This document shows, piece after piece, positions 5,286-47,748 of a stretch of 64,000 bases of DNA (position 1 is its first letter; every line of letters starts with the position of its first letter). The notes below the pieces were generated by a model. That model did not search any database. It was not told the origin of the DNA and saw nothing but the letters and a program-made list of their open reading frames with translations. Origin of the DNA: an uncultured Alphaproteobacteria bacterium (GTDB lineage: Bacteria > Pseudomonadota > Alphaproteobacteria > Rhodobacterales > Rhodobacteraceae); the NCBI GenBank assembly GCA_963799455.1, contig CAWCXF010000007.1, positions 99,221-163,220 of the forward strand, given 5' to 3'. The translations under genes and the position numbers were made by a program.

Positions 5286-5317
5286 GCTGTTTGCGACTTA
5301 GGCTGTTTGCGACTTAG
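5270..5317. repeat. perfect 16-bp x3 tandem repeat (gctgtttgcgacttag) spanning the convergent stop codons of the VOC gene and engB
   Basis: Read directly: copies at 5270-5285, 5286-5301 and 5302-5317. Confidence 0.9.
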
Positions 5318-8848: not shown

Positions 8849-9763
8849 CTATAAGAAGCGCACTGCCAAGTCAAGGTCCCAAAGCATTGTGTGGACCAGC
8901 CCTAGCTGACGGTGATCGAGCAGCGCAAGGGTTTGGCGGTCATCGGTGTCATCATTACGCTTGGCTATACGGGTGGTCACTTGCGGTGCTTCGGCCAGCC
9001 GGACCTCGGCATCGGTCCAGATTCGCATGGCTCGCGCGTCCAGCCACAGCGCATCGGAATGCGGTACCGAATTGGTCATGTCGTAAAAGGCGCGGGCTTT
9101 GCCCTCACCCATGCCGACCGCGCGATAATACTCGATATAGGCGCGGTTCTGCGCCGAATCATGGGCGTAGTCGGAAGCTTCGCGGCCTTCATCGTCGCGC
9201 CAGGAATGAACCGCGAACTCGGCCCCTTCCTCGATGATGCGGCGGGTGCCGGCCATGAACAGGTCAACCGCACCCGAACGGACCGATCCCCGGGCGGGCA
9301 CGATGGTGGCGATATCCGCCTCGTGGATCATCCGGCCCAGTGACAGGTTGGCGCGGTCGTCATAAGTGCCGGGAGCCTCGACCATGACCAGCGCGTCGAT
9401 CTCGGGAAAGGCGCGCATCATGGCGGAAAAATGCTGGGGTGATGCCGCGTCGGTCGCACCGACAAGGCTCGCTGTATCGGGTGATGTGACTTCGAAAGGA
9501 CCGAATCGATAGGCGATTGGGTTCGCCGTTTTCGGGCTCGCGACAAAGGCAATGTCCACCGCTAGCGGAAAGGCTATCGGCGCAACCGCCAGGCGTGTGG
9601 CCTTGGTCGCAATCGCGTTCTCGTCAACCTCGCCTGTCGTCACCGATGCCAGTGCAAGCTTTGCCAGTTGGGCATCGATCACTGTCGTTGCAGCAGGCGC
9701 GGCAAAAGCTGGCTGGGCTGCAGCCATCGATAAAGTCAGTGCCGGGAGTGTCCAACGCAACAT
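8849..9763 (-). CDS. hypothetical secreted protein
   Basis: 304 aa with an N-terminal signal peptide (LSMAAAQPAFA). Confidence 0.45.
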   Translation of the reverse strand: MLRWTLPALTLSMAAAQPAFAAPAATTVIDAQLAKLALASVTTGEVDENAIATKATRLAVAPIAFPLAVDIAFVASPKTANPIAYRFGPFEVTSPDTASLVGATDAASPQHFSAMMRAFPEIDALVMVEAPGTYDDRANLSLGRMIHEADIATIVPARGSVRSGAVDLFMAGTRRIIEEGAEFAVHSWRDDEGREASDYAHDSAQNRAYIEYYRAVGMGEGKARAFYDMTNSVPHSDALWLDARAMRIWTDAEVRLAEAPQVTTRIAKRNDDTDDRQTLALLDHRQLGLVHTMLWDLDLAVRFL

Positions 9764-25516: not shown

Positions 25517-26930
<1,414 letters not shown>

Positions 26931-26934
26931 CGTT

Positions 26935-28035
26935 CGGCGCTTCGGCGGGGTCGAGGGAGTGCACGGAGTGCCCGAGGGCGGGACCGTTGACCTTCATGAA
27001 CGACGAGCCCCAAGCGGTTGGCGACGTACTCCATGAGCGTCGTCTTTCCGTAGCCGGGAGGCGAGATGAGCAACAGCAAACCCATCAAGTCCGTGCGCTT
27101 CTCATTGCCGGCGGCGCCGATCTGCTTGGCCAAGTTGTCCCCCACCAGCGGCAGGTAGACTTCGTTTACGAGGCGGTTGCGCACAAACGCGCTCATCACC
27201 TTCGGGCGAACTCTTCGAGACGGAGCGTTTCACGCGTGCGTGTGAGCAGCTCATGTCGAACGCTTCGGTACGCTTTGTACGCGGGAACTCGTCCACTCTT
27301 GAACCGGCTCAGCCGCGCCGAAATTCATCGAGTCGAATCACGAGTGATTGGTCGGTGATTCGTCCGTGCTGGCCAAGCAGCCCTTCGACCTTGAGGGTGG
27401 TCAGTGCATCGCTCGGTGTGTCTGTCCAGCTTGTCGGTCAAGGAGCAGCGCGGTCGCTTCCGTCGCCGAATGCGCGCGTCGGGCTGCCTCCTCGCCGCCC
27501 TTGCGCACGAACCCGTCGATCCATGCCCGGCACAGTGCCGCCTGCGCGGAGAGTGAGTCCGCCAGAGCTTCCACATCCTCTTCAAACGCGCGACGGCTGC
27601 CCGCGCTCTTAGGGCCGCCAAGAACTCATCCCGGAGCCACACCGCGTCACGGCTGGTGCAGAAGCGCGTGCTTCCTTCCGCCAGCTCTTGCGCGAGATAG
27701 TGCCCCGCAACCTCGGCGTCTTGCGCGCTGAAGTCCAGCGCGTGCTCCGTACGAAACCTGTCGATGCTCTTCCCCACTCTTCGCCGAGCCGAAGCTGCTC
27801 CTTTGCTGCGCCAAACGCCTTTTCAAGACGGCCGAAACTCGCTCCACGCCGCTGCAGCGACTCTCGGTCTTCGAGCCGTGACCAGTAGATCCACGCCAGC
27901 GAACGTGCGCTCGACGCGTACCGGAGAAGCCCGCCCGACTCCCGCGCCAGCAAGAGCCGGTCGAGGATGCGCGCCGCGTCCGCGTCGTGGACGCCGCCCT
28001 CGTAGCCCTCGTCGTAGCGCGCGGCGGCGACCTTG
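26935..28035 (-). pseudogene. 3' region of the giant coiled-coil ATPase gene: protein-like in all three minus frames in turn, includes the P-loop module, cut off at the junction
   Basis: Frame switches among ORFs 27609..27953, 27325..27777, an unlisted frame, and 27199 downward. The last carries [52 protein letters not shown], then [13 protein letters not shown] in yet another frame. Confidence 0.6.
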
Positions 28036-30934
28036 CTACAAGCTTGACGAGCCCACCCTCGCTGCGCTGCGCTCCGCGGAGCGCCGCCATCGAAAGCTCC
28101 GCGTCTGAATCTCCGTCGCCGGACTCCGCATCGTATAGAATCGTCGCCGCCAAGTACTCGGCGCGATAGACGTCTTCGCTCTCCGACACGAGCTGCTGCG
28201 ACCAGAGAGGCTTTGTCGCGGCGAACGCTGCGTCGTCGACCGTCTCGTAGAAGTCCGTTCCCGTCAGGTGAAACGCAAGGTCATCGCCCCGCGGCACCAA
28301 CGCCAAGTCGAGCGCCTGCTCGTTCACGCTGAAGCGATGTGTGCCTAGCTTGATGAGGTTGCCCTCTTCGAAGAGCTCGAGGCGGTCGCGCAAACCACGA
28401 ATGGAGTCGTGGCGGATCGCTTTGAGACGCGCCTCGACATCGTCGGCTTTCACCGAGTCGCCAAGCTCGCGCAAGCTCTCCACGAGCTGCCGCAGCTTCA
28501 TCACCATAGGGTCGGCGGCCAGATACGAGTTCAGTTCATCGGCGCTGGTCATCGTGCGAGAGCGCCGCTCGACGCCGTCGACGATCCGGCCTGCCGCCTT
28601 CATCAGGTTTTCGGCGCGGCGTTGCTGTGCTTCCACCAGGGTTTGACGCTTCGCACTAAACGCGTCGTAGATCTCTTCGCGCTTGGCGGCGATCTCCTCG
28701 AGGAAGTCGTCGAACTCCGAGAAGCGCGCCTCGAGCTCCTCGAGTTGCACCATCAGACGCGCGCGCTCTTCGTCTACGCGGTCCGGCGCCTGGGCCATGG
28801 AGAGAGCGCTCGTGACGCTCTGCGCCAGTAGGCTCAGCTGCGCAGCAAACTCCGCGCCGCCCTCTGTCTTCATCAGCGCGCGACGCTTTTGCGTCAGCGC
28901 CGCGCGGAGCTGGTTCAGCTGCGCGAAGACTTGGCTGATGGTCTCCAGAATCGACGTCCTCGAGGTGGCGTCATCGACCTCAAGCCCTGACACCACTTCG
29001 CTGATGAGCGCTAAGCCTTCGCTGACCTCCTCGGCGCGTTTGATGAGCGGATTGATTTCCGCGACGCGAGTGACTTCCTCCGAAGCACGCAGGCACTCGC
29101 TGAGCTCCTTCGTGATAGGCGCAAACGCGTCATCCCCGAGCAAGAATCGAACGCAGTCCCGGCTGACGCGGTCGAACTGCTCGATGACCTGCTCTTCGCG
29201 AGCCTCCAGCGCCTCGCCGTCGATGTAGCGCGTGTCTTTGAGCGTGATGAGCTGCCCGCGCTGTCGACGGAGCGCGCTCAAGAGCGCCATGTATTCGCTG
29301 GCGGAACGACCACTACTGGCTTCGACCTGCTGCGTCAGCTCGTCGTGGGCAGCGGCGGCTTCCGCGAGGACGGAGGCCGCATGAGAGCGAAGCGCGAGAA
29401 CCTTCTCGTACTCATCGACGACCTGCTCCGCCGTCTGGCGAACGTCGCCGAGAACCTTGAGGAGATCGATCTCGTCGTTACCAAGCCAGTAGTACGCGTC
29501 CATAAAGGACGACACGTTCTCGCTGAGCTCGTCGAAGGTGCGCCGCTCTGGATTCGGCTGCTCGATGAGACGCTTGAGGCTGTACGCCTCCGAGATGCCG
29601 CGAACGAGTTCGGCGTTTCCAACCTTGGCGAGGAACGATCCGTCCGTCGGTGCCGCGGCTGCGTGCTCCGCGCTGAAGAAGGGCGTCCGCCACACCTGCA
29701 TCGGGTGAACCCGCGAGGGTTCATCACTCAGCGCTTTGAAGACGAGCATCTCGCCGTTGTCAAAGATCGAGTAACCGTGGCACTGAATCGGAGCCTGAGA
29801 TTCTTTACGAATCATATTGTAGGGAAGCAGCTCGTAGCGACCTTCGTCTGCTCGGTGAAAGACATAGAGAACGTCTTCGCCGTTGGGCGACTTGATCACT
29901 TGCGTCAACTCCAGGCCTTCACGGGCCGCGTCGAAGATCTTCGATTCGCCGGTCTGAAGGTAGTAGCCCCCGGGGAAGATGATCCCGTGGTCTTCGGGCA
30001 GCTGCCGACACGCTTGCCCGATGGCGTCGATGCGCTGCACCTTGTGTGAGCGCGTGTTGAACACCAGGTAGCGCCACGTTTCCTCGCGGAAAGGACGGAT
30101 CTTGAGGAGGATCAAACCGCCGAGCTGCGCGTAGAAGAACTCCCCGTCGTCGAGGGTTTGGTTTACATCGTCGACGGTCTCGGCATAGACGCCGCGACCC
30201 GTCTCGGTGTTGTTCTCGACCTTGATCGTGAGGTCGCCACCGGTGGTCTCGACAAAGCAGCGGTCAAGAATCGATAGATGCGGGTAGCGGCCAGGAACCT
30301 GGTCGTCTCGCGTCGTCGAGGTCCACTGGAAGTCATAGCGATTCGGCAAGACATCGTCGATGTCGCCACGGCTGTCCATGTACGTAAGCTTGCCATCCGG
30401 GTGTTCCTTCCAGCGAAATACACGGACTTCCTCCGTCGTCGCGCCGGTCTGAAAGACCGCGAGCAAACGCCCATTGACCTTGCGAATCCGAAGCAGTCGC
30501 GTCTGGTCGTAGTAGCGGTAGAGCTCTTGGAAATCCTTTTCGAAAGCTTGGTCGGCCAAAAAGGCGTCGCCGAAGTCGCGAGACAGAGCGCTGAGGTCGT
30601 AGCCGCTCTCCGTTTTGTCGAACTGATGAAGGCTGAACACGTCGGAGACGACGGTTTCCTTCTTCAGTCCAACAAAGACGTTGTAGCCGAAGAGCACGTT
30701 GCCTTGAATGGCGTGGATATCGCGCGGGACACAGTTGTGCTCCGTACGAATCCGCTCGTTTGCTACGACCTCCAGCTCGGTGCCGCCAAAGACCTCATGC
30801 CGCCTCGCGTTGAGGGCTTCGATCTTGGTGGCGAGCTGCTGGCCTTGGGCGCGGAGCCGCGCGTGGATGACTTCATAGTTGCCACCCTCGAGAGGCTCCG
30901 CCGGCGTGATGCTCTTGTCTGCGCTGTCGGCCAT
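28036..30934 (-). CDS. giant uncharacterized protein: N-terminal globular region (~500 aa) plus long coiled coil; upstream part of a coiled-coil/AAA ATPase
   Basis: 1095-aa ORF (27647..30934) is intact to about 28035. Heptad-rich segments such as EELEARFSEFDDFLEEIAAKREE; start ATG lies 3 nt after the flotillin stop. Confidence 0.7.
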
Positions 30935-30937
30935 CGT

Positions 30938-33064
30938 CTACTTCAGGCCTAGCTTTGAGGCTTGCATGGCAAGCTGTTGGAGCTTCGACTTCGTGCCGTC
31001 ATCGGCCCCGCTCATCATCTGCGCCAAGAGCGCGCTGATGCTCAGGTTCTTGATGGCTTCGGAGTCGATGGCGGGGTTGCTGAGAACTTCCACCACGTCG
31101 CTCGGCAGTGACTTCTCGCCGCTGAGATATTCCCCAAGGACAGCTCGAGCCGTCTCGCTGTTGTTGACGAGTTCGTCCGCAGACTGACCAAGAGTGACCG
31201 CCTTCATGAAGCGGTCGAAGAACTCTCCGTCGCCACCGACGATGTTGATCTTGGCGGCGCCCATCGCCTGGGCCATCACGCTGGCCTGGCTCGCGGCGAT
31301 GTGTTGGCGTACCCCGATCTCCTTGAGCTTCACTTCCTTCTCCATCTCGAGTCGGATGCGGAACTCCTCATGCTCGCGGCCTACGCCGTCCAGAGCCTTC
31401 ATCGCGTTGGCCTTCTCGGCGAGGCCGGCGGCCTCCGCGACAAGCTTCTTTTCGATGGTGTTGGCCTCGGCCATGCCGCGCTTCTCGACGGCTTGGGCGT
31501 GGGCTTCTTCCACGCGCGCTTCCGACAGGCCCTGGGCTTCGCGACCCACAGCTTCGGCGTTCATCTTCTCACGGACGACGACGGCGTTCGCCATTCCTTC
31601 CTTCTCCGCCACCGAAGCGGCGGCGTCACGAACGCGGACGGCGGCGAGGCCTTCCTTCTCGATGGCGACGGCGTTGGCTTCTTTGACGCGCACCTGGGCA
31701 AGCCCAGCGGCGGCCTGTTCAGCCTGGGTTCCTTCGGCCTGGCGAATCTTCGCCCGGGCCGACTTGTCGGCGGCTTCCAGCTCAGCGTCGGCCACGGTGA
31801 GCATTTCCTTCGCCTTGAGGCGAGAGACTTGCTCGTTGGCTTCGGCGGCTTTCACAGTCTTCAGGAGAGCTTCGTCGGCGACGCCTTCGGCGTTGATGAC
31901 GGTGGCTTCCTTGTTTCGCTTCGCTTCGGCGAGGAGACGCAGGTCCTTGATGCGCTCTTCTTCCTCGGCGACGGTCTTGTCGACGACGATTCGGCCGCGG
32001 ACCACATCGGCGATCTCTCGCTTCTGCACCTCGACTTCCTTGTTCTTGCTGATGAGCTGAAGCTCCGTCTCGCGCTGGCGGCTGATCTCTTCGATCATGC
32101 GTGCCTTCTCCACGCGCTCCGTCTCCACGGCGATCTCTCGCTCGCGGTTCTTCTGGGCGATGGCGACGCCACGTTGCTTCGCCTCGTCGGCGACGAGCAC
32201 CTCTTCTTCGTGCTTGGCGCGCAGCAGCATGGTTTGCTTATTCTCTTGGTCTCGAACACGCATTGCTTCGTTCTCTTCGCGGGACTGAGCCACGGAGATC
32301 TCGCGTTGCTTCTTCGCCTCGGCGGCGGCGCGTCGTTGGTCGAACTGGAAGATCGCTTCGTCCGCGGCCAGGTCTTGGCTGCCCATCTCCATGCGCTCTT
32401 TCTGGCGGAGCTCGTTGGTCTCCACCTTGGAGGCTGCGGTGATCTCGGTAATCTTGCGAATGCCGTGGGCATCAAGGATGTTCTCGGGGTCCAGGTGCTC
32501 AAGAGGCGTCTGCTCGAGGTAGTCGATGGCCGCATCGTTCAAGGTGTAGCCGTCCAGGTCATCGCCGATAACCTCGACGATGTTCTTTCGGAAGTCCGCG
32601 CGCTTCGTGTAGAGGTCGGCGAAGTCGAACTGCTTTCCAACGGTCTTCAACGCTTCGCTGAACTTGGCGTTGAAGAGGTGGTCGATGGCGGTGATGTCCG
32701 ACGCGCGAACGCAGCCCAAGAGACGCGCGACTTTGAGCACGTCTTCCGGTTCTTTGTTCACCTGGACGAAGAAGGTCACGCGAATGTCCGCGCGAATGTT
32801 GTCGCGACAGATGAGGCCGTCCTTGCCGCGACGATCGATATCGATGGTCTTGACGGAGATGTCCATGACCTCCGCGCGATGAAGAACGGGGTACACCACC
32901 ATGCCGGTGAAGGTGACCTTCGGTTCGCCGCTCATGGTGTTGACGATGAGCGCTTTGCCTTGGTCCACCTTTCGGTAGAAGCGGGCGATCATCGTCAGGA
33001 CGCCCACGATGAGCACGAATGCGATTCCTACGCCGATAAGCCACGGTACTGCTTGTTCAAACAT
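30938..33064 (-). CDS. flotillin-family SPFH protein (YqiK-like)
   Basis: N-terminal transmembrane helix, SPFH/band 7 domain (KALIVN...VKTIDIDRRG) and a very long E/A/K/R-rich coiled coil. Start ATG at 33064 preceded by AAGGA. Confidence 0.85.
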   Translation of the reverse strand: MFEQAVPWLIGVGIAFVLIVGVLTMIARFYRKVDQGKALIVNTMSGEPKVTFTGMVVYPVLHRAEVMDISVKTIDIDRRGKDGLICRDNIRADIRVTFFVQVNKEPEDVLKVARLLGCVRASDITAIDHLFNAKFSEALKTVGKQFDFADLYTKRADFRKNIVEVIGDDLDGYTLNDAAIDYLEQTPLEHLDPENILDAHGIRKITEITAASKVETNELRQKERMEMGSQDLAADEAIFQFDQRRAAAEAKKQREISVAQSREENEAMRVRDQENKQTMLLRAKHEEEVLVADEAKQRGVAIAQKNREREIAVETERVEKARMIEEISRQRETELQLISKNKEVEVQKREIADVVRGRIVVDKTVAEEEERIKDLRLLAEAKRNKEATVINAEGVADEALLKTVKAAEANEQVSRLKAKEMLTVADAELEAADKSARAKIRQAEGTQAEQAAAGLAQVRVKEANAVAIEKEGLAAVRVRDAAASVAEKEGMANAVVVREKMNAEAVGREAQGLSEARVEEAHAQAVEKRGMAEANTIEKKLVAEAAGLAEKANAMKALDGVGREHEEFRIRLEMEKEVKLKEIGVRQHIAASQASVMAQAMGAAKINIVGGDGEFFDRFMKAVTLGQSADELVNNSETARAVLGEYLSGEKSLPSDVVEVLSNPAIDSEAIKNLSISALLAQMMSGADDGTKSKLQQLAMQASKLGLK

Positions 33065-33267
33065 TGATTTCCTTCTTCTCTCTACTGCGCAAGAGCGCGA
33101 ACCGGACCTGCGGACATCGCCGGCCTCCTTCCCAAACCCTGGTCGCCGAACAAAATCCGACGCGCCGAAGTGGACCATGGATGGTGCACCTTGTGGGGTT
33201 TGAGTTGGCCCAAGGTGTGTTCCCCCCGATAAACATCTACGGGGATTGAATGGTCTCAAATCCCGCT

Positions 33268-33969
33268 TCAGCGTTCGGCTTCGAGGAGCGCGTCCATAAG
33301 CTCCACTTCGTAGAGATCGGCCTCGGCGTCGTAGTCCAAAAGCAGCACTTTGGCGTTCTTGATCAGCGCCGCGTCACTGCAGCGAACGCGCAGGAGGCTT
33401 CCGGAACCGTCGTCGAGAGTCGCCTGTCCTCGGCCGCCGGCGTCCGCATGTATCTTGACGCGCGCGACCTTGCCGACGAGCACCCGCTTGCTGGGGGCGT
33501 CATTGGATGCGAACACGCGCCCAAGGGGCGTGCTGGCAACTGCCGCCATGGGCCACGCGATGGCGGTGGACAGCCCGAGGACAGCGACGTTGCCAACGAG
33601 CTCAGGCCCTGGGATGAGGCCCGAGTAGCCAGAGAGTCCGTAGCAGACCGCCCAGCCAAAGAAGAAAAGCAGGCTCAATCCTACGGTGAGTGGCGCCTTT
33701 CGGAGACTCAAGATGCTGGAGAGCGAGGACGCGCCTCCAATCCCGATGTCGTCCCCGACCTCGCCCGCGTCGCCCGCGTCCATCTCGCCGACGTCGCCGC
33801 CGACGTCTCCGGCAATGTCCATGTCGATATCACCCACGTCGCCATCGACGCCAAAGTCCAAGTCGAGCGCGCCGAACATGACAAGCATCCAGTAGCAGAG
33901 CGAAAACAGGACACCGACGGTGAAAACAAGTGTCGGAAAGGCGAAGGCGGTGGCGACGAACTGCTCCAT
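33268..33969 (-). CDS. NfeD/YqiJ-like membrane protein, partner of flotillin (start may be 34080)
   Basis: Transmembrane helices, an acidic DxD-rich segment, and a C-terminal beta-rich OB-fold-like tail (VGKVARVKIHADAGGRGQATLDDGSGSLLRVRC). Confidence 0.6.
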   Translation of the reverse strand: MEQFVATAFAFPTLVFTVGVLFSLCYWMLVMFGALDLDFGVDGDVGDIDMDIAGDVGGDVGEMDAGDAGEVGDDIGIGGASSLSSILSLRKAPLTVGLSLLFFFGWAVCYGLSGYSGLIPGPELVGNVAVLGLSTAIAWPMAAVASTPLGRVFASNDAPSKRVLVGKVARVKIHADAGGRGQATLDDGSGSLLRVRCSDAALIKNAKVLLLDYDAEADLYEVELMDALLEAER

Positions 33970-34160
33970 GTCGGAGCAAAGTGGCACGACCGGTCCAAAG
34001 TAGATAGTGGGATAGGCAGAGGACGAATCCCGTGGGGAGGACTCCGCACCGCCGAGCGCTTTTGCGACTGGCACATTCAAGTCAGGAGGGGGGCGAGCTC
34101 GCGGGCGAGGGCCGCGAGCACAGGGTCAAAACTTGTCTGTCGGGGCACTCGTGCGGCGCA

Positions 34161-36542
34161 CTAGAAGCTCTCGCCGAGGGCGATGTGGATCGCGCCGGGG
34201 AATCCGAAGAAGGTATCTTGGACCCCTTCGTTGTCGCCGGTCATGCGTGGATCATCACCGAAGACTTGCAGGCTGGGTGGCGCCCAGCCGACGTCGAGGC
34301 GGATGGCCCCGACGATGGTGTAATAGCGGAGGCCCATGCCGAAGCTGAACTGCGGGACGTTGAACCGCCACTCTTCGGCGGACACGTCGCCGGCGTCGCC
34401 AAACGCCACGATGCCGAAGCTCTCGGTGACGCGGAGTCGAAGCTCCGCGCTCGCGAGCCACTTGCGGTTGCCGCCGCTCCGTCCGTCTCCGAGGCGTCCG
34501 GGCAAGTAGCCGCGTACGTCCGTCGAGCCGCCGCCGTAGAAGCGCTGGTCGCGTGGGCCGAGCAGTGTGCTCTCTTCGTCGAGGCCTTCGTCTGGGTCGG
34601 AGATGAGCATTGCGCCGAGGACGAAACGCCCGGCGAGGGTCAGTCGTCTCCCGAAAGGCACGTACGCGCGGATGTCCGGGACGACGCGTATGTAGTCGAA
34701 CGTAGACGGCAGAAAGTAGCCGCCCTCCTGGAGGTCCACCTGAAAAAAGAACCCCTTCGTCGGACGCACGTTGTCGTCGCGGAAATCGAAGCGGAGAATC
34801 TGCTGAAGGTACGTGATGTGGTAGTTGCTTGGAGGTGCGGAGTCGTCTTCGCGGAGTTCACCGTCCGGGACGTGGTAGTAAGAGAAGCGCGGCAGCCCGA
34901 TGGCAGCGAAGATCTTTCTCTCTAGAAAGAAGCGCTCAAGTCCCAGGCCCACGTCGACGCGATGGCGAAAGAAGATGTCGTACGGGTCGCGGCCGAAGTC
35001 GTGCTGTGCATCGATGGTGAACGTAAGATTGGGCTCCAAGAATCCGGGCTGTCGAAACTCGGCGCTGATGAGATTGCCAAGGCGCGGCTCGTCCACCGTC
35101 GGGAAGCGGTCACCGAAGATCAGACGTGGCGTCTCGCGTAGAATCAGCCGGCGAAGACCGCCGAGCATGTTGCGGTTCTCGTAGGTCACCGAAGCGTGCA
35201 CGTCCCACTGGTCGACGCTGTTGACCTCGCCGAATCGCCCGCGATTCTCGACACCGCTGAGGATGCCCAGGCCCAGGGAGTAGCGGTGATGGCGCGCTGG
35301 GGTGACGCGGATGCGAACGTCCACGACCTCTCCTTCGCCGGTGAGGATGGGTTCGGCGACGACGCCGGAGAATCCGCCGAGGCCATAGACGAGGCGCTGC
35401 CCTTCGCGGATTTGCGAGCGGTCGTAGCGCATGCCCGGCTCCAGCTGACTGGCCGCGATGACGACATCTTTGGGGATGTTGTCTGGGCCCTCCACTTGGA
35501 TCTCTCCGTACACGCACACTGGACCTGGATTGAGCTCAAGCACGATGTGAGCTTCCCGCCCGGGTCGGTCGATTCGTACGCGTCCGTCGACGCGCGCCCG
35601 CGCATGGCCGGCTCGGAACATGATGCCTTCGAGGACGTCCTTCGATTTGTCGTAGCGCTGCTCGTCCCAACGGTCTCCGACGTTGAGTTTGAGCCCTTCG
35701 CGCATCTGCCTGGCCATGCGCTCGGACATCTCCTCGATGCCGACGATCTCCAGGGTCCTCACAAGGGTGGGCTCTCCTTCCTCGATCACGAATCGGACGT
35801 CGACGGCGCAGCCTTCGTCGTCGTCGATGCGCTCACAGGGGGCTTCGTCGACTTGGGGTGTTCCGTTTCCGTTTCCGTTTCCGTTTCGGTTTCCGTTTCC
35901 GGTTTCGGTTTCGGTTTCGGTTTCGGTTTCGGTTTCGGTTTGGGTTTCGGTTTCGGTTTCGGTTTCGGTTTGGGTTTGGGTTTGGGTTTGGGTTTGGGTT
36001 TGGGTTTCGGTTTCGGTTTCGGCGTGATCGTGGCCGTGATCGTCGTCCGAACTCTCACCCGCTTCGTCATCGCCGGCGTTCTCCTCCGCCTCCTCGCTGT
36101 CGTCGTCCTCGCTGACGTCCGGGAGCAAGTCCTCGTCCATCGCGCTCGGTGGCGTTGTCTGCACTTCCACGACGCGCGCGCCATGATACCCGCGCGCCGC
36201 GTACCAGCGTTCGATGCGCTCGACGTCTTGTTCCACCGTGATGCGGTCGAAGTAAGGCCAGTCGGACCAAGGCCAGGTCCAGAGGTTGAGCCGTCGAACG
36301 TCTCCTTCAAACGGCGGCTCTCCGCACGATGTGCTTTCGTCGAGGTCCAAGTTAATTTGGACGCGGTCACGTGCCTGCGTGGCGAGGCAGACTCGGATCG
36401 CGTCCCGGTCGAAGGACTCCACTCCGTCGAACTCCAGAGTTCGGACACCGTAGCGGGTCGGCGGAATGCTCGCGCAACCCGCGAGGACGACTAGCAGCCA
36501 TCCCCATCTCAACGTTCGACCGCAACTGCTTAGGGCTCCCAT
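34161..36542 (-). CDS. tamA: TamA-like Omp85-family outer-membrane assembly protein with a low-complexity insert
   Basis: Signal/lipobox, POTRA-like repeats, C-terminal surface-antigen beta-barrel ending in F. Adjacent to tamB with a 13-nt overlap. Confidence 0.75.
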   Translation of the reverse strand: MGALSSCGRTLRWGWLLVVLAGCASIPPTRYGVRTLEFDGVESFDRDAIRVCLATQARDRVQINLDLDESTSCGEPPFEGDVRRLNLWTWPWSDWPYFDRITVEQDVERIERWYAARGYHGARVVEVQTTPPSAMDEDLLPDVSEDDDSEEAEENAGDDEAGESSDDDHGHDHAETETETQTQTQTQTQTQTETETETETQTETETETETETETGNGNRNGNGNGNGTPQVDEAPCERIDDDEGCAVDVRFVIEEGEPTLVRTLEIVGIEEMSERMARQMREGLKLNVGDRWDEQRYDKSKDVLEGIMFRAGHARARVDGRVRIDRPGREAHIVLELNPGPVCVYGEIQVEGPDNIPKDVVIAASQLEPGMRYDRSQIREGQRLVYGLGGFSGVVAEPILTGEGEVVDVRIRVTPARHHRYSLGLGILSGVENRGRFGEVNSVDQWDVHASVTYENRNMLGGLRRLILRETPRLIFGDRFPTVDEPRLGNLISAEFRQPGFLEPNLTFTIDAQHDFGRDPYDIFFRHRVDVGLGLERFFLERKIFAAIGLPRFSYYHVPDGELREDDSAPPSNYHITYLQQILRFDFRDDNVRPTKGFFFQVDLQEGGYFLPSTFDYIRVVPDIRAYVPFGRRLTLAGRFVLGAMLISDPDEGLDEESTLLGPRDQRFYGGGSTDVRGYLPGRLGDGRSGGNRKWLASAELRLRVTESFGIVAFGDAGDVSAEEWRFNVPQFSFGMGLRYYTIVGAIRLDVGWAPPSLQVFGDDPRMTGDNEGVQDTFFGFPGAIHIALGESF
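35860..36022. repeat. hexanucleotide microsatellite (GTTTCG/GTTTGG/GTTTCC)n inside tamA, encoding (ET)n(QT)n and (GN)n on the minus strand
   Basis: Seen directly: about 27 near-perfect hexamer units. Confidence 0.9.
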
Positions 36543-39500
36543 CGAAGCTCCAGTCCCCAGGTGTTTCCTTGCTGGTAGCGGGTGTTCAGAAGCAGGCTGT
36601 AGGGGAAGAGGAGCTCAAGCTCCACGCCGCCGGCGAATGAGCCGCCGGCGCCCTCGTTGCTTTGACCGCCGACGTAGCCTTCGATGTGCGCGCCGATGAC
36701 GACGTCGCTGAGAAAATCGGGGATCAACCGGTCGGCCTGAATCGCTGCGCGAAGTCGGGCTCCCGTCGCATTGGACTCGATCCCGAATACCGGAATGTAC
36801 TCGCCGAGTTCGCGTCGGGTGAGACTGCTGAGGAGACCGGCGGTGAGGCCTGAGACGAACCCAAGCACCTGGTCGCGCGCTCCCGCGCTGTCATTGCCGC
36901 CGCCGCCGCCGCCGATCAGCAAGGCCAAGATCTCCGCCTCCGTTTCAGCGCTTGGGTCAGACGAAGAGAAGTTGAGCTCCAGCGAGAAGAGGTCCCCGCT
37001 AAGTTGCACGGTGACGGTCTGCTGGTTCGCCAGCTCGTGCACGGCGGTGATGTCGAGGCGTGGGTTGATGCTTCGTCCACCCGAAAAACGGATCTCACTT
37101 CGCTCAAATTCGAACTGCTTGCCAACAATCGAAAGAAAGCCGCGGCGGATGTCGACGGTGCCCTCAAGCCGTACGCCAGAGCTGTCGATAATAGCGATGA
37201 GGTCGGGCTCCACCTGGACGGAAAAGTCATCACGACGCACATAAAACGGATTGGAGGTTAGGTTAATGCGGGTCTCGCTGTCGTCCGCCTCGTCGGCTTC
37301 GTTGGAGACCGTCAACGTTCCTGCGAGGCCAGAGAAACCATCATCGTCTTCGTAGACGACGTCAGGGTGCTGGGAGAGCGATTGGACCTGACGGCCCACG
37401 TCTGGAGAAATCTGGATCGCTGCGTCTCGCAGCCCGACGTCGAACTCACTGACGGGGTCGCCAAACTCACCGGTGATGTCGATCTTCGTATCGAGCGTTG
37501 CGTACACGATACCCTCTAGGCGGAAGGGGAAGTCGTCGAGGACCGCCGTGGCGTCGACGCGACCGAGTTCCCATCCGTCCATTCCCACGTGCCCATTGAC
37601 CAGGATAGTTCCGTCGCGGTCCCGGAAGCGGACGTCGTGCAGGTGAAGTCGGTCATCGTCGAGGGCGACGCGTCCGTTGAGACTCTCGACACGCAGCAGG
37701 GGTTCGCGCAGCGTAAAGCCCACCTCTTCCAGTTCCACGCCACCGCGCACATGGACTTGGCCGGCGTCGTCGCCTCTGGCGCTCACTTCGCCGCTGAGGT
37801 GTCCGCGTGGGGAACCGATGAGGGCGACGGGCGCGGCGAGAATGGCCAGCGGCGCGTGGTTGAAGTTCGCGCGGCCTTGCCAGCCGGCGGTGTCGGGAAG
37901 CGGTAGATGAAGTTCGTCGTCCATGGCCATGGGGACTGAGCCTTCGGCGACGAAGAGCTCGGTCTCGCCGGCCAGGCGCAAAGACACCGTCGCGCGGCTG
38001 GCTGTAGCGTGCGCTTCGATGTTGAAGTCCGCTGGCGGAGTGTGGTCCCGGGCGCTCGTCGATTGAAGTCCAGCGATGGTCCCGCGTAGATCCACCATCG
38101 GCTGGTCGCCAAGGATATCTTGGAGCTGCGCCTCGAGGTTTACTTCCCCAGCGACTTCTGCGCAGACGATGGGGATTCCGTTCATCGGGAGCTCTTGGAT
38201 CGAAAGGTCGGCGTTGATCGCGGGCAGTCGTTCCGGCATCTGAACGACCCAGCTGTCGAGGGGAAGGGGCATGGTGGCGCTGAGCGTGGCGCGCTCTGCG
38301 CCGCCAGTTCGGACGCGACTGTCGAGGTTGAAGGTGCCGTCGTTGAGGCGGCCCTCAAGGGTCATGCGCGTCGCACTGATCGAACAAGAGTCGCCGTCGT
38401 GCTCGCCCGCCACAGGTGGATAGGACACCACCGCCGACACCGTCCCTTCGGCTCCCCCGAGGCTTGAGTTCTGCCCTTGTCCTTGGAAGTGCGCGTTCAG
38501 CCCGACTCGGCCTTCCTGCTCTTCGAGCATCGCGATAGGAAAGTCGCGAAGGCTGCGTTCGGGGATGAGAAGGTCCACCGACCAAGGGTGCTGCAGGATC
38601 TGGCGCGCGTTTTGTTCCCACGCCATTCGGTCGAAGGTGAGCGCGACTCGAACATCGAGCATCGGGGCGGATGCTTCTTTGAGGACAAGACTGCCGAGGA
38701 GATTTCCGTCATCGAGCTCCGATTGAAACTCGACGCGTGGAACCATGAGTTCGAGATCTGGATAGCCGAAGTCATTGACAGCGAGGAAAAGCTCGAAGGC
38801 ACGCGGGTCGATGTATGACCCGGACGAATGCAGCTCCACCCCGAGCGTGCCCGACAGCGCGGGCAGTGATTCGGGGCCGAGGATGACGTTCAGGCTCTCC
38901 CTGAGTGGCTCGAGCTTCGTGCCGCTGAGCTGCACGTGCAAGTCGAGGGGGGCGCGCTGCCAGTCGCCGCTTAGGTCGGCTGAGGGCGCGGTACCCATGA
39001 GCTTGATTTCGACTCTTCCCACGACTTCGCCGAGTGCCTCGACGAGGAGCTCAAGTTCCGCCTTTCCTTCGTTTTGGTTGACGTTTGCGTGCCATTGAAG
39101 CGTCGCGAGTTCCAAGCCTTGGTACTTCACAGAGGTCAGGGACCCCTCCGAGTGAAGGGCGGGCCGGGCGATGGATCCATGGAACTCGCCCGTGGCTGCA
39201 ACGGTCCCTTCGATGGGAACTTCTAAGAGGTCCCCGAGCGGTTCGAGGTTCGCGTGATCGACGTCGAAGGAAAAGTCCGAGCGTCCGCGAAATGAGACGC
39301 GGCCGCGCATCGTTGCGCCGAGCACGTTCGGCGCACGGACGGCGAGGGCGCCGACGGAGAAGCTGTTTTCGCCAAGGGCGAAGCGCTGGATGTCGATGGT
39401 GACGGGCTGCGGAAAAAGCCCCCGCGCGCGAACGTTGCCCGTGGCCTGGACGCCGTCTTCGATGCCAAGCTGGGTGTCCACGTCGACGACAAGAGCCCGA

Positions 39501-41224
39501 TCGACGAACTGCGCGGGGCCCTCGACGCGGCCTCGAATCCGGTAAGGCCCGTCGCCCGCGGCGCTGAGATCGACGCGCGTCAGATCGATGCCGTAGAGCG
39601 TCGCTTGCCCCGTACGAACGTGCGCATCCAGGCGTGGGGCGCTGACGGGTCCGCTGGCGCTCGCGCGGACCGTCGCTTCGGCGACGCGGACGTCTTGCAT
39701 TCGAAAGCCGCGGACGTTGACGTCGGCGCGTGCGTCGAGGACGTCGTCCCGCAGAGAGACCTCCGCTTCGATTCGCGCACGTCCCCCGACGCCCGGGAGG
39801 AGCATCGCGAGCGAGGGTTGCGCAGAGAGCCTCGGTAGGTCGGCATCGACGTTCAGCGAGAGGTCACCGTCGAAGCCGTATCGTCCGCGGATGTCCATGT
39901 GTCCACCTTCGGAGAGCGCAGGCAAATCCAGCCGGCTCAGAACGACCGCGTCTTCGGTGATCGTCGCGTCGGCGATGAGTCGCTCGACTTCCCACGTGTC
40001 GTAGGCGATGTCCTCGCCGCGGACCTGAATGTCCCAGCCCGACGCGGATTCAGCGGCGCTGACGTTCAGGTCAAACTGCACGGCGCCAGCGACGCCGAGG
40101 TCGGCGGCCAAAGCCTCGGCCAGGTTAAGGCCAGGGGTTCGAAGCGCGAGGTTCGCCTGCAGCGGTCCCGAAAGATCGACGGACCCATCAAGCGCGAGTT
40201 CGCCCCCAGGCGGCCGGAGCGACCCTTCGAAGTTGAGGGCATCGAAGGGGCTATATTCCTCCGTGGGCGCGTCGCTCTCCGCCGAACGGACGTCTAGCCC
40301 GATCTCCGTGGGACCGCCGAGGAGGTCTTGGCCGGTAAACGGCGTGAGCATCGCGTTGGTCAGAACGCCCTCGACCCGAGCATCGAGAGCCCCGAGGGTG
40401 TCGTTCACCCACGGCAGCGACGCGCTCACATCGAGGTGGCCGTCTTCCGTGGCGAGGCGCAAAGACGCGTCCATCGAGCCGCCATCACGCAGCGCCGCAT
40501 CATAGGTGAGCCCGCTGAGAGCCACGTAGGGCTGTCCGTTTAGAACGATGCTGGCGCTCTCGCGTTCCTGAACCGCGGCCTCGGCGTCGCGCGGGTTTCC
40601 GTTCTGTGTGCCGTGGATTTCGACGGACTCTCCTTCGACCTCGATGCGAAGGTCGAGGTCAAGGTCGCTCACCTGCACGTCGATCCCAGGAACGTCGTGG
40701 ACCGATGCGTCGCTCACCGCGCCGGTCACCCTCATGACGAACGTCGACGGCGCCGGGTCCGGCGGTGATGGTTCCGCGGGCAAGAACGCTTGGGAGATCC
40801 TAAGTCCGCCCTCGGCGTCGGTGGAAAGCGAAATTCGGGGCGATTGAACGACCACATCGCTCAGCAAGAGCTCTCCGCCGATCAGCGGGAAAATCGCCGC
40901 GGAGGCGCTCGCTCTTTCGACGTCGACCACGTGCACGCCCTCCGCGTCCGTGAGCTCGATGGACGCAAGTTCCGCCGTCACGGACATGAGGCGGACGTCG
41001 ATGTCGACGCACTGAAAGTCCATGGAGCCGGCGATGGCGTCGTTGCCGAGATCACGGCCCAAGGAGCAGATGACCTCGCGAGCGGGGTTGCTGTTCAGGT
41101 GGATCAGCACGCTCGTGACGAGGCAAAAGATCGCCAACAGAAGCCCCAGGAGCGTGCGCAGAACACCCTTCAGCACACGTACGCCGATAACGGACGCCTT
41201 CGACTTGTCTTGTTGGGTGCTCAC
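36530..41224 (-). CDS. tamB: translocation and assembly module protein TamB (AsmA-like, DUF490 C-terminus)
   Basis: 1564 aa, N-terminal transmembrane anchor, long beta-rich repetitive body, and the characteristic C-terminal DUF490 region. Confidence 0.8.
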   Translation of the reverse strand: MSTQQDKSKASVIGVRVLKGVLRTLLGLLLAIFCLVTSVLIHLNSNPAREVICSLGRDLGNDAIAGSMDFQCVDIDVRLMSVTAELASIELTDAEGVHVVDVERASASAAIFPLIGGELLLSDVVVQSPRISLSTDAEGGLRISQAFLPAEPSPPDPAPSTFVMRVTGAVSDASVHDVPGIDVQVSDLDLDLRIEVEGESVEIHGTQNGNPRDAEAAVQERESASIVLNGQPYVALSGLTYDAALRDGGSMDASLRLATEDGHLDVSASLPWVNDTLGALDARVEGVLTNAMLTPFTGQDLLGGPTEIGLDVRSAESDAPTEEYSPFDALNFEGSLRPPGGELALDGSVDLSGPLQANLALRTPGLNLAEALAADLGVAGAVQFDLNVSAAESASGWDIQVRGEDIAYDTWEVERLIADATITEDAVVLSRLDLPALSEGGHMDIRGRYGFDGDLSLNVDADLPRLSAQPSLAMLLPGVGGRARIEAEVSLRDDVLDARADVNVRGFRMQDVRVAEATVRASASGPVSAPRLDAHVRTGQATLYGIDLTRVDLSAAGDGPYRIRGRVEGPAQFVDRALVVDVDTQLGIEDGVQATGNVRARGLFPQPVTIDIQRFALGENSFSVGALAVRAPNVLGATMRGRVSFRGRSDFSFDVDHANLEPLGDLLEVPIEGTVAATGEFHGSIARPALHSEGSLTSVKYQGLELATLQWHANVNQNEGKAELELLVEALGEVVGRVEIKLMGTAPSADLSGDWQRAPLDLHVQLSGTKLEPLRESLNVILGPESLPALSGTLGVELHSSGSYIDPRAFELFLAVNDFGYPDLELMVPRVEFQSELDDGNLLGSLVLKEASAPMLDVRVALTFDRMAWEQNARQILQHPWSVDLLIPERSLRDFPIAMLEEQEGRVGLNAHFQGQGQNSSLGGAEGTVSAVVSYPPVAGEHDGDSCSISATRMTLEGRLNDGTFNLDSRVRTGGAERATLSATMPLPLDSWVVQMPERLPAINADLSIQELPMNGIPIVCAEVAGEVNLEAQLQDILGDQPMVDLRGTIAGLQSTSARDHTPPADFNIEAHATASRATVSLRLAGETELFVAEGSVPMAMDDELHLPLPDTAGWQGRANFNHAPLAILAAPVALIGSPRGHLSGEVSARGDDAGQVHVRGGVELEEVGFTLREPLLRVESLNGRVALDDDRLHLHDVRFRDRDGTILVNGHVGMDGWELGRVDATAVLDDFPFRLEGIVYATLDTKIDITGEFGDPVSEFDVGLRDAAIQISPDVGRQVQSLSQHPDVVYEDDDGFSGLAGTLTVSNEADEADDSETRINLTSNPFYVRRDDFSVQVEPDLIAIIDSSGVRLEGTVDIRRGFLSIVGKQFEFERSEIRFSGGRSINPRLDITAVHELANQQTVTVQLSGDLFSLELNFSSSDPSAETEAEILALLIGGGGGGNDSAGARDQVLGFVSGLTAGLLSSLTRRELGEYIPVFGIESNATGARLRAAIQADRLIPDFLSDVVIGAHIEGYVGGQSNEGAGGSFAGGVELELLFPYSLLLNTRYQQGNTWGLELRWEP

Positions 41225-46428: not shown

Positions 46429-46476
46429 CAGCTTCTTCGGAAAGCAGCTTCTTCGGAAGGCAGCTTCTTCGGAAGG
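46429..46476. repeat. 16-bp x3 tandem repeat (cagcttcttcggaa[a/g]g) in the leader of the SPFH gene
   Basis: Read directly: copies at 46429-46444, 46445-46460 and 46461-46476. Confidence 0.9.
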
Positions 46477-46659
46477 ATGGGCCCTCGCCTCGGCGACCCG
46501 GTGGTGGACCCAGCGCACTTCTTCTTTCGTTTTGCGTCTGCCCTTGCGCAGGTGCGGACGAGGGGCGGGGCCTCCCAAACTTTGCGTCTCGTTGCGACGA
46601 GACCGCCCGGCGCAGCTCCGTTTTCGGAGCGGGTGCGCCTTAGGAAAGCGAGAGAGAAA

Positions 46660-47748
46660 ATGTTCAGCACGTATCAAATCCAGTTCAACCAGCGAGGCAT
46701 CCTCTTGCGCGACGGCGTCGCCAAGGAGGCTCTGATGCCTGGGCGTCATCGCTTCTTCGGCAAGACCGACGTGGTCTACTTGCACATCGACGAGCTTGTC
46801 TTGGGCGTGTCCGCGGAGCTGCGGGCTGTGATCCCGAGCGACTGGTACGAAGAGTTCGAGGTCGCCGAAGATGAGCGCGCGGTGCTCTTCGTCGACGGCG
46901 TGCCGAGCAAGTACCTGCGCCCTGGCGTGCACCGTCACTGGAAGCTGCAGAACGTTTCGGTGAAGCTCGTGCGCTACGACGCGGACAAGGCGCTAGCGAA
47001 GCCCACCAAGGAGCTCATGCAGATCATCCCCGCGAGCGACGTGTCGTTTCAGGTCATCGCGGAGTATGAGCGCGGCGTGCTCTTCGTCGGGGGTCGCGCG
47101 GAACGTCTCCTCGAGGCGGGCATCCACGTCTTCTGGACGCAGGCCCACGCGCCGGTGGCGATCACGAAGGTCGACCTGCGCACGCAGCTCGTCAACGTGA
47201 TGGGTCAGGACTTGATGACCCGCGACAAGGTCACGCTTCGTCTGACGCTGACGGCGGAGTACGAGGTCCAAGACGTCATGCGCAGCGTGCTCTTGCGAGA
47301 GTCGGTGCGCGACGCGGTCTACCTGCGTCTGCAGCTTGCTGCGCGTGAGTACGTCGCGGGGGTGAAGCTCGACGATCTCTTGGACGGTCGCAGCGATTTC
47401 GCAGCGCATCTCCAGGACGCGCTGACGAGCGACGTCGAGGCCATGGGCCTGAAGCTGGTCCGTCTCGGCGTCAAAGACATCGTTCTTCCCGGCGACATGA
47501 AGGTGCTCATGAACCGCGTCATCGAGGCGGAGAAGGAAGCGGCGGCGAAGGTGATTCTGCGGCGTGAAGATGTCGCAGCAATGCGGTCGTTGGCTCAAAG
47601 CGCGAAGGTCCTCGAAGAGTCCCCAGGCGCGATGCGTCTCAAGGAGATGGAAGCGCTCAAGGACATCCTGTCGGGGGTCGCTGACCTCCACGTGGTGGTC
47701 GGCGATGGTCCAGGCAGCCTCGCGGGCCTGCGTTTGCCGAAAAGCTAG
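46660..47748 (+). CDS. SPFH/band 7 (stomatin/prohibitin-like) family protein
   Basis: Starts MFSTYQIQFNQRGILLRDG; SPFH core (VTLRLTLTAEYEV...) plus a C-terminal coiled coil. The 5' part of ORF 46477.. is probably leader, not coding. Confidence 0.7.
   Translation: MFSTYQIQFNQRGILLRDGVAKEALMPGRHRFFGKTDVVYLHIDELVLGVSAELRAVIPSDWYEEFEVAEDERAVLFVDGVPSKYLRPGVHRHWKLQNVSVKLVRYDADKALAKPTKELMQIIPASDVSFQVIAEYERGVLFVGGRAERLLEAGIHVFWTQAHAPVAITKVDLRTQLVNVMGQDLMTRDKVTLRLTLTAEYEVQDVMRSVLLRESVRDAVYLRLQLAAREYVAGVKLDDLLDGRSDFAAHLQDALTSDVEAMGLKLVRLGVKDIVLPGDMKVLMNRVIEAEKEAAAKVILRREDVAAMRSLAQSAKVLEESPGAMRLKEMEALKDILSGVADLHVVVGDGPGSLAGLRLPKS

Follow-up and report, generated by a model that had tools for sequence, protein, structure and literature searches.

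How does a gene for an Omp85-family protein come to carry a long hexanucleotide microsatellite within its reading frame, and does the peptide that it encodes matter to the protein? The question is raised by a 64,000-nucleotide stretch of DNA, here called the window, for which an initial annotation had described a six-base repeat inside a TamA/Omp85 gene. Coordinates of the features discussed below are collected in Table 1.

Table 1. Features of the Omp85 locus, in window coordinates
Feature	Position	Strand	Details
tamB-like gene, 1564 aa	36530..41224	minus	Directly upstream of the Omp85 gene; stop overlaps the Omp85 ATG by 13 nt
Omp85-family lipoprotein gene, 793 aa	34161..36542	minus	Predicted signal peptide with lipobox LAGC (Cys23), POTRA1-3, 16-strand barrel aa 419-789
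POTRA1, aa 30-254	35781..36455	minus	Family-specific elaboration and long beta2-beta3 loop (aa 131-244) holding the insert
Acidic, His-containing, non-repetitive part of the lineage-specific insert	36021..36122	minus	aa 141-174, PDVSEDDDSEEAEENAGDDEAGESSDDDHGHDHA
Hexanucleotide microsatellite	35861..36022	minus	26.8 copies; coding-strand unit SAAACC or GAAACG; aa 175-227; from Tandem Repeats Finder, codon table and shuffle control
20 in-phase units, GAAACC x13 (Glu-Thr) and CAAACC x7 (Gln-Thr)	35901..36020	minus	aa 175-214
Out-of-phase segment, Gly-Asn / Arg-Asn	35862..35900	minus	GAAACG or GAAACC hexamer shifted by one base; aa 215-227
Alternative-frame ORF PKPK	35786..36448	minus	
Alternative-frame ORF FRFR	35858..36115	plus	
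Alternative-frame ORF PFPF/SVSV/WVWV	35683..36027	plus	
Alternative-frame ORF SVSV/GFGF/GLGL	35196..36494	plus	

The host protein and its gene neighbourhood

The product of the host gene, which has an alternative TTG start at 36512, passes the Pfam gathering scores for both the Omp85 barrel domain (PF01103, 95.3 bits against a cut-off of 24, aa 492-753) and POTRA (PF07244, 57 bits against 21.3). In an AlphaFold2 model, three beta-alpha-alpha-beta-beta POTRA units (aa 30-254, 260-338 and 344-415) precede the 16 barrel strands. The N-terminus, MGALSSCGRTLRWGWLLVVLAG followed by C, fits the lipobox motif [LVI][ASTVI][GAS]C; at least 90% of aligned homologues share Cys23, and 55 of 62 family members match a relaxed form of the lipobox. 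The host protein is predicted to be a lipoprotein of the outer membrane, its 16-strand barrel preceded by three POTRA domains.

The name TamA, under which the gene was initially annotated, holds only in part. The Omp85 family is right and the closest structure is indeed a TamA: the top Foldseek match is Pseudomonas aeruginosa TamA (8us1, E 5e-28, TM 0.67 normalised to the target), TamA 4c00 is also matched, and the best match of a profile search is again 8us1 at 1.2e-49, with BamA near at 2.4e-47. However, the protein falls below the cut-offs of the NCBIfam TamA equivalog (NF047950, 79.8 bits against 625), of TamL (NF052279, 35.3 against 400) and of the BamA equivalog (TIGR03303, 87.7 against 297; the model has three POTRA domains, not five), its lipobox cysteine is TamL-like, and its gene comes after tamB. 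The TamA proteins of Proteobacteria (8us1, 4c00) likewise combine three POTRA domains with a barrel of 16 strands, and the window gene has an apparent genetic linkage to tamB as theirs do. The window protein differs in its predicted lipid anchor, in the position of its gene after tamB, and in a POTRA1 with family-specific, Cys-containing elaborations and a long loop.

The tamB-like product carries the TamB domain at its C-terminus (PF04357, 102.5 bits) and a weak AsmA match at its N-terminus. The order tamB then omp85 on one strand is conserved in the loci L001, L002, L005, L007 and L008, and, judged from its nearest relatives, the pair appears to sit in a Polyangiales-type (Myxococcota) genome. 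Literature on Myxococcus TamB and Omp85 yielded incidental mentions only. The TamL and TamL2 lipoproteins are found in Bacteroidota and Chlorobiota (Heinz et al. 2015, PMC4494059; PMC12045153). The window protein resembles TamL in being a TamA-like Omp85 protein that has three POTRA domains, a predicted lipoprotein signal and an N-terminal Cys that is conserved; the tamB2-tamL2 pair of F. johnsoniae has both the gene order and the overlapping stop and start codons of the window locus (PMC4494059; PMC12045153). It differs from TamL in scoring far below the NCBIfam TamL cut-off, in belonging by its nearest relatives to Myxococcota, and in a low-complexity POTRA insert of a kind unreported in TamL. 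The locus suggests that lipid-anchored, TamB-coupled Omp85 proteins occur in Myxococcota too, beyond Bacteroidota and Chlorobiota.

A hexanucleotide array read in two phases

Tandem Repeats Finder describes the array as 162 bp of period 6 with 94% matches, 1% indels and a score of 231, and it is the sole long microsatellite within the window. The initial description of an in-frame hexanucleotide microsatellite in an Omp85-family gene was accurate. The open reading frame is intact throughout. When the window was scanned for four tandem copies of GGTTTS with at most one mismatch, all 17 matches fell within the array, and none of 100 dinucleotide-preserving shuffles contained a match; such an array is not expected by chance.

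The minus-strand reading also agrees with the ET/QT/GN low-complexity product reported at the outset, placed beside an acidic, His-containing stretch (the residues just before the array read ...SSDDDHGHDHA). In coding order the units are ET x3, QT x6, ET x4, QT x1 and ET x6, followed by GN GN RN GN GN GN G, so that the variant units are blocked and not scattered, with a QT x6 run and then one isolated QT. Codon usage is monotone, with GAA for 13 of 13 Glu, CAA for seven of seven Gln and ACC for 20 of 20 Thr; the genes around it use these codons at background rates of 35-42%, 32-36% and 44-45%, respectively.

Across the GN segment the ET/QT hexamer continues, with its reading displaced by one base. 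A +1 indel, the extra G where ET gives way to GN, opens the segment, and a compensating -1 indel, an A missing from the last unit (GGAACA), closes it. Removing the G and restoring the A in silico gives an uninterrupted in-frame (ET)n-PQVD. The alternative-frame ORF across this segment reads ETETETETETETEHPKS. The array is interrupted, its longest perfect run being 42 nt or seven units, and the present rate of slippage should therefore be lower.

The insert occupies a hairpin loop of POTRA1

The repeat had been placed between the POTRA region and the barrel, and this placement was wrong. Both the AlphaFold2 model and the family alignment put the insert within POTRA1, in the hairpin loop that joins beta2 to beta3 and lies about 190 residues ahead of the barrel, which begins only at aa 419; a POTRA-barrel linker is contradicted by the models of the window protein and of its orthologue P0002 alike. 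In a profile alignment with POTRA3 of Neisseria BamA, the beta2-beta3 loop corresponds to a gap in BamA.

The full-length model (pLDDT 86.8) places beta1 at 30-39, alpha2 at 100-116, beta2 at 123-130 and beta3 at 245-254, with pLDDT of 95-98 in the strands flanking the loop and below 50 at residues 156-227. In P0002, which is 80% identical and has a 23-residue loop, the model gives a matching order of elements, with those after beta2 offset by 82 residues, and zero residues with pLDDT below 50. Predicted with the long insert and in the short-loop orthologue, the fold is the same and the loop of the window protein is disordered; in these models the POTRA fold around the insert is intact. The insert as a whole (aa 141-234) contains 32 Asp or Glu, one Arg and three His, and the 53 ET/QT/GN residues and the 34 acidic residues preceding them are together predicted to make up an intrinsically disordered loop of 94 residues in the periplasm, its net charge being about -31. 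The POTRA1 beta2-beta3 loop appears to be a naturally permissive insertion site, taking at least 87 extra disordered residues, and may be of use in tagging or engineering Omp85 proteins.

The expectation that no Omp85 protein had been described with a low-complexity segment was too broad. Cyanobacterial Omp85 proteins have a proline-rich, low-complexity, negatively charged N-terminal region of variable length (Arnold, Zeth and Linke 2010, PMC2878562), and they share with the window protein a disordered, negatively charged periplasmic segment of variable length in a three-POTRA Omp85. Nevertheless, that region lies N-terminal to POTRA1, is rich in Pro, Ala and Glu and is a conserved feature across cyanobacteria, whereas the insert described here lies inside the POTRA1 hairpin, is composed of ET, QT and GN, is confined to one genome and is a true microsatellite. 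What stands is the narrower statement: a search of the literature for tandem repeats or low-complexity inserts within POTRA domains found nothing relevant.

The same loop varies among relatives

We counted loop length between the conserved D-L-L and C-E-R motifs, leaving out of the pattern-based survey a few mis-anchored loci (values above 100, reaching POTRA2 or POTRA3). Among about 60 homologues and 69 genome loci, most have a loop of eight residues; it is 95 residues long in the window protein and 19, 20, 23, 25 and 39 residues long in its five nearest relatives, where it is acidic and non-alignable. Three proteins that are 90-97% identical overall (P0003, P0093 and P0094) nonetheless differ in both the length and the sequence of the loop. 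At the same site, L001, one of the five nearest relatives, carries an independent, perfect 15-nt tandem repeat of 2.9 copies (EDGVA x3), and L006 and L019 carry further independent acidic inserts. Length variation at the site is thus seen between species, and in all six clade members the loop is strongly acidic while its sequence is not conserved. The beta2-beta3 loop of the clade is already long, acidic and hypervariable.

Origin of the array and its possible role

The array itself is real, a coding microsatellite that keeps the frame, and we consider it probable that it was born by slippage and is carried as a near-neutral passenger in a permissive, hypervariable, acidic disordered loop. Replication slippage of the six-base unit SAAACC would have expanded the array inside a structurally permissive loop of the Omp85 protein, adding the 53 residues and leaving the POTRA fold undisturbed; a +1 indel followed by a compensating -1 indel would have put the hexamer into the GN reading and restored the frame. 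The array would be able to gain or lose whole units, and such changes would be tolerated. As had been pointed out initially, slippage by whole units preserves the frame, the unit being a multiple of three. The data show the array, its frame, its place in the fold, the predicted disorder, the variability of the site among relatives and the uniform codons, whereas we infer slippage as the mechanism, a frameshift that was later compensated, near-neutrality and length polymorphism at the present day; the array may be length-polymorphic now. Because Glu, Gln and even the frame-shifted GN reading are all tolerated, the peptide sequence seems to be under little constraint, and what is kept amounts to the frame and an acidic, hydrophilic composition. 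The ET/QT/GN insert is a curiosity and not a novel type of system.

The near-neutral reading is qualified by two observations. The acidity of all six clade members in the face of unconserved sequence hints at selection on composition, so that the loop may not be functionless. In addition, TamB docks on POTRA1 of E. coli TamA (PMC4525385), and POTRA1 is the lipid-anchored domain of TamL (PMC11252910); given these roles, a 94-residue acidic loop in this domain may affect function.

One alternative is that the array is a tunable spacer, or contingency locus, in which gain and loss of units heritably tunes the docking of TamB on the lipid-anchored POTRA arm or the placement of that arm at the outer membrane. 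We regard this as unlikely. The hexamer preserves the frame, the amplified runs of variant units imply repeated rounds of slippage, and close relatives differ in loop length, another lineage having an independent tandem repeat there; E. coli TamB binding, moreover, requires POTRA1 (PMC4525385). There is also a precedent in E. coli tolA, whose in-frame tandem repeat differs between strains and influences sensitivity to phages as well as stress tolerance (Zhou, Michiels and Aertsen 2012, PMC3477136), repeat number modulating envelope stress tolerance. In both cases a cell-envelope protein contains an in-frame repeat whose product is a low-complexity stretch in the periplasm, and the number of copies can change while the protein itself survives. 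However, strain variation and phenotype are established for tolA, whereas the array in the window is known from the sequence of one genome, and TolA is an inner-membrane-anchored, periplasm-spanning protein with its repeat in the long domain II, whereas the repeat described here forms a loop within a small folded domain. Against a tuning role, most family members work with an eight-residue loop and the array has at most seven consecutive perfect units. Furthermore, hexamer arrays of this sort occur in unrelated genes of related genomes, so that a special tie to the Omp85 protein is unnecessary; the 0.9 Mb of related Polyangia loci contain five such arrays with at least ten copies, a habit of the lineage that also fits slippage as the origin.

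Contingency loci of Neisseria and Haemophilus use repeats of 1-5 or 7 nt to switch genes by frameshift or promoter spacing. They resemble the window array in the presumed slipped-strand mispairing, in short tandem repeats and in location in envelope genes; the hexamer, in contrast, alters length only, and the single frameshift inside the array is cancelled before the array ends. For the same reasons, on/off phase variation was rejected.

A second alternative, which we consider decidedly unlikely, holds that the Asp/Glu/His-rich composition is itself selected, either to bind periplasmic divalent cations or to hold POTRA1 off anionic phospholipid head groups, the ET repeat being one route to a longer loop. 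Acidity in six of six clade members with unalignable loops is consistent with such selection, as is the composition of the insert, including DDDHGHDH. POTRA-membrane contacts of P. aeruginosa TamA rely on the binding of Arg and Lys to PG lipids (PMC11252910), so that POTRA charge plausibly matters, and metal binding has been linked to prokaryotic low-complexity regions (PMC6821194). Within the repeat, however, Gln has replaced Glu by drift in seven units, and the frameshift leaves thirteen residues as GN or RN, which argues against strong selection on charge, and the acidic extension is absent from most of the wider family.

There is also a more ambitious proposal: an evolvable acidic tether on the Polyangia POTRA1 hairpin, its length reset by slippage, would tune TamB docking or POTRA1-membrane spacing and act as a contingency element in the core machinery of outer-membrane biogenesis. 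We hold this to be highly improbable. If loop length varied and mattered, it would be an unusual evolvable element in the TamB-docking domain (docking as in E. coli) of a core assembly factor.

Finally, the length of the array or its two internal single-base indels could be errors of repeat assembly or sequencing. Logan run ERR12040027 contains the organism of the window, as seen from neighbouring genes (L081 99.9% and L082 100% identical to the window), and its k=31 contigs stop short of the Omp85 gene, which falls between the end of one at 34143 and the beginning of the other at 43712. Neither the 793-aa product nor its 783-aa TTG-start variant was on record in exact look-ups, and the same was true of the product of the neighbouring DUF3686 gene and of a contig-edge partial protein predicted by simulating k=31 unitig break-points in the array. 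Scans of metagenome contigs with a protein pattern and a degenerate DNA pattern (CERxDDDEGCAV) gave no match, and a scan of species-representative genomes found only relatives of at most 80% identity. The array does contain repeated k-mers at k=31, but all are unique at k=37 and above; together with the 42-nt longest perfect run, this makes it resolvable by ordinary assemblers from reads of at least 100 nt. An artefact would also have to account for an open reading frame that is intact through the array, for two indels that compensate exactly and for independent inserts at the same loop site in relatives, one of them a tandem repeat, and we judge it extremely unlikely.

Spurious reading frames across the array

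An RNA, CRISPR-like or regulatory role was rejected, the array lying wholly within a conserved reading frame. As anticipated, the repeat yields false ORFs, with PKPK, FRFR and others present in the other frames (Table 1). Among the frames crossing the array, homologues conserve that of the Omp85 protein only; the alternative-frame ORFs are by-products of the repeat, and spurious repeat-derived ORFs are to be expected from gene callers at this locus.

A hexanucleotide array within an Omp85 gene

The array described in the initial annotation, with its in-frame ET/QT/GN reading, is present as 26.8 copies of a 6-nt unit (94% matches, 1% indels), and no second long microsatellite is found in the 64-kb window. 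A four-unit degenerate pattern matched 17 times in the window, every time within the array, and in none of 100 dinucleotide-preserving shuffles. Immediately after ...SSDDDHGHDHA, the minus-strand reading (aa 175-227) gives ET x3, QT x6, ET x4, QT x1, ET x6, GN x2, RN, GN x3 and G. ORFs in other frames (PKPK and FRFR, already named as false in that annotation, and PFPF/SVSV and GFGF) were found and are by-products of the array.

Each array residue is written with one codon (Glu GAA 13/13, Gln CAA 7/7, Thr ACC 20/20, Gly GGA 7/7), whereas outside the array, in this gene and the genes around it, GAA accounts for 35-42% of Glu, CAA for 32-36% of Gln and GGA for 14-22% of Gly codons, a contrast that indicates amplification of a single DNA unit. 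Variant units lie in runs (CAAACC x6; GAAACG in 5 of 6), so point mutations were probably followed by further slippage rounds. The GN/RN part is the array hexamer read one base out of phase: if one G is taken out where ET gives way to GN, and the A missing from the shortened final unit (GGAACA) is put back, an uninterrupted, in-frame (ET)n-PQVD results, and the alternative frame over this part reads ETETETETETETEHPKS. Its simplest history would be a +1/-1 compensating indel pair inside the array. That E, Q and frame-shifted GN readings are all tolerated speaks for weak constraint on the peptide sequence.

Coordinates of features in the window, the Omp85 model (AlphaFold2) and related Polyangia loci
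Feature	Position	Strand	Description
16-nt x3 tandem repeat	5270..5317		perfect; GCTGTTTGCGACTTAG; TAG in every copy
Gene run	25517..33259	minus	same-strand genes
773-aa ORF	within 25517..33259	minus	no Pfam match
1095-aa protein	within 25517..33259	minus	DUF3686 ('ATPase involved in DNA repair') + DUF7902
560-aa protein	within 25517..33259	minus	FtsH-like AAA+/M41 peptidase
Gene just downstream of Omp85	33268..34080	minus	233-270 aa, hydrophobic segments; no Pfam match
9- and 12-nt repeats	33761..33811		short; acidic low-complexity stretch GDVGDIDMDIAGDVGGDVGEMDAGDAGEVGDD
Omp85 ORF	34161..36542	minus	793 aa; holds array; barrel PF01103 95.3 bits, POTRA PF07244 57 bits
Hexanucleotide array	35861..36022	minus	coding
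tamB-like ORF	36530..41224	minus	1564 aa, directly upstream of Omp85; C-terminal TamB PF04357 102.5 bits
16-nt x3 tandem repeat	46429..46476		96% matches; CAGCTTCTTCGGAAGG
SPFH/Band_7 ORF	46477..47748	plus
POTRA1	beta1 30-39, alpha1 46-51, alpha2 100-116, beta2 123-130, beta3 245-254 (aa)
POTRA2	aa 260-338
POTRA3	aa 344-415
Barrel	aa 419-789
L019 array	5403..5475		hexanucleotide x11 (GGCGAA)
L038 array	1792..1888		among long hexanucleotide or 12-nt arrays
L043 arrays	1..139, 9274..9463, 10344..10422		hexanucleotide x32 (CGAGCC), x22 and x13 among arrays there
L064 array	482..615		hexanucleotide x22 (ACGCTG)

A TamB-partnered host protein

The stop codon of the tamB-like ORF, whose N-terminus has a weak AsmA-type Pfam match, overlaps the Omp85 ATG by 13 nt; starting Omp85 at TTG 36512 instead leaves a gap of <20 nt and no overlap, and homologue N-termini suggest that this TTG may be the true start. 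The closest orthologous loci (L001, L002, L005, L007 and L008) share the tamB-omp85 order, and F. johnsoniae tamB2-tamL2 shares both gene order and stop/start overlap with the window locus (PMC12045153). The Omp85 N-terminus (MGALSSCGRTLRWGWLLVVLAG followed by CAS) matches a lipoprotein signal, Cys23 is kept in at least 90% of aligned homologues, and 55 of 62 family members have a relaxed lipobox at this site. The protein does not reach the NCBIfam cut-offs for BamA (87.7 vs 297), TamA (79.8 vs 625) or TamL (35.3 vs 400), and its close homologues, the best with 80% identity over aligned parts, all belong to metagenome-assembled genomes that carry the labels Polyangiales, Sandaracinaceae or Myxococcota. 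Taken together, the domain matches, tamB neighbour, lipobox, missed cut-offs and homologues point to a divergent TamA/TamL-like, TamB-partnered, predicted Omp85 lipoprotein of a Polyangia-type myxobacterium. The earlier name TamA agrees with the best structural match of the model, P. aeruginosa TamA (8us1, E 5e-28), but not with the TamA cut-off. According to published reports, TamL, a lipidated TamA-like Omp85, occurs only in Bacteroidota and Chlorobiota (PMC4104836, PMC4494059); the window family appears to be a TamL-like, putatively lipid-anchored, TamB-coupled Omp85 in Myxococcota.

In a paralogous Omp85 group (L027, L029-L032, L034-L036, L050) the preceding gene is not TamB-type; its place is taken by an ORF of 830-1200 aa whose C-terminus is conserved (e.g. 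...LDDPLRTPLQP) and which may encode a different partner protein. Some genomes hold both paralogues.

The insert lies within POTRA1

The AlphaFold2 model (73 sequences, mean pLDDT 86.8, pTM 0.78) has three POTRA domains and a 16-strand barrel. Residues 156-227 are its sole long low-confidence segment (pLDDT <50), between strands with pLDDT 95-98. In a profile alignment, the beta2-beta3 loop of the family corresponds to a gap in Neisseria BamA POTRA3. The model of P0002, an 80% identical orthologue with a short loop, has no residues with pLDDT <50 and the same element order, with elements after beta2 offset by exactly 82 residues. The two models and the alignment place the insert in the POTRA1 beta2-beta3 hairpin, from which it is predicted to loop out ~190 residues before the barrel begins, and this contradicts the original placement as a linker between the POTRA region and the barrel.

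Two further features of POTRA1 in the family are an insertion of ~48 residues between alpha1 and alpha2 (CGEPPF...LWxWPWxDWP) and, where the beta2-beta3 loop has its base, a CERxDDDEGC motif; together they supply four largely conserved POTRA1 cysteines (aa 52, 73, 236 and 245; window 36542..35781) that could form two periplasmic disulfides. Distant homologues P0063-P0070 have neither insertion nor motif.

A variable loop and the probable origin of the array

Between the conserved D-L-L and C-E-R motifs, the loop measures 8 residues in most family members (e.g. P0006, P0009, P0016), 19 in P0003, 20 in P0093, 23 in P0002, 25 in P0094, 39 in P0001 and 95 in the window, the largest insert seen at this site; inserts are not universally absent from orthologues. 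All clade inserts are acidic, they are mutually unalignable, and P0003, P0093 and P0094 share 90-97% overall identity, yet differ in both loop length and sequence. A perfect 15-nt x2.9 repeat (EDGVA x3), distinct from that of the window, occupies the same site in L001, the locus of P0001, and additional, independent acidic inserts are found there in L006 and L019. In other members of the family, low-complexity sequence is inserted in loops of POTRA2 or POTRA3. By these comparisons the POTRA1 beta2-beta3 site is an insertion/deletion hot spot.

We consider it probable that slippage expanded the hexamer within this permissive, already hypervariable, acidic, disordered loop, where the array would be tolerated, close to neutral and able to change by whole units. 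It is unlikely, although tolA offers an analogy (PMC3477136) and TamB binds to POTRA1 in E. coli (PMC4525385), that the loop is a tunable spacer acting on the docking of TamB or on membrane spacing. Slightly less likely still is selection for an acidic or cation-binding composition: acidity is kept across the clade, but the Glu to Gln drift and the GN segment speak against strong selection inside the repeat. An assembly artefact is highly improbable, given that the ORF is unbroken, its two indels cancel exactly, perfect periodicity extends over at most 42 nt and all array k-mers are unique from k=37 upward, so that normal assembly parameters resolve the array. Logan run ERR12040027 holds the same organism (contigs L081 and L082, 99.9% and 100% identical to the window); these k=31 contigs do not span the Omp85 gene, and neither its full-length product nor one predicted contig-edge fragment is on record.

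What is unusual is the host domain; the phenomenon itself, an in-frame coding microsatellite that gives a disordered low-complexity loop, is known. Such inserts had been thought undescribed in Omp85 proteins; however, cyanobacterial Omp85 has variable-length, negatively charged, low-complexity segments N-terminal to POTRA1 (PMC2878562), whereas that of the window lies inside POTRA1. A literature search found no low-complexity segment described inside a POTRA domain.

Hexamer arrays across the lineage

Related Polyangia loci totalling 0.9 Mb contain five hexanucleotide arrays with at least 10 copies, together with several 12- to 24-nt repeats that encode acidic GE or DGTE linkers. The Polyangia lineage habitually carries long hexamer arrays, which are not specific to Omp85, and coding microsatellites seem to be a lineage trait. 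One array encodes (EDGT)n, and some arrays encode GE/DGTE linkers in apparently homologous cysteine-rich periplasmic proteins.

Other features of the window

L082 encodes a protein identical to the product of the gene just downstream of Omp85, and the adjoining gene run may be an uncharacterised module. At 5270..5317 the 3' end of a plus-strand gene, stop codon included, seems to have been triplicated. The repeat at 46429..46476 runs right up to the ATG of the SPFH/Band_7 ORF and has a GGAAGG Shine-Dalgarno-like motif in every copy; L081, from another data set, spans this region and is 99.9% identical, a single 1-nt gap falling at some point along its 3.46 kb.
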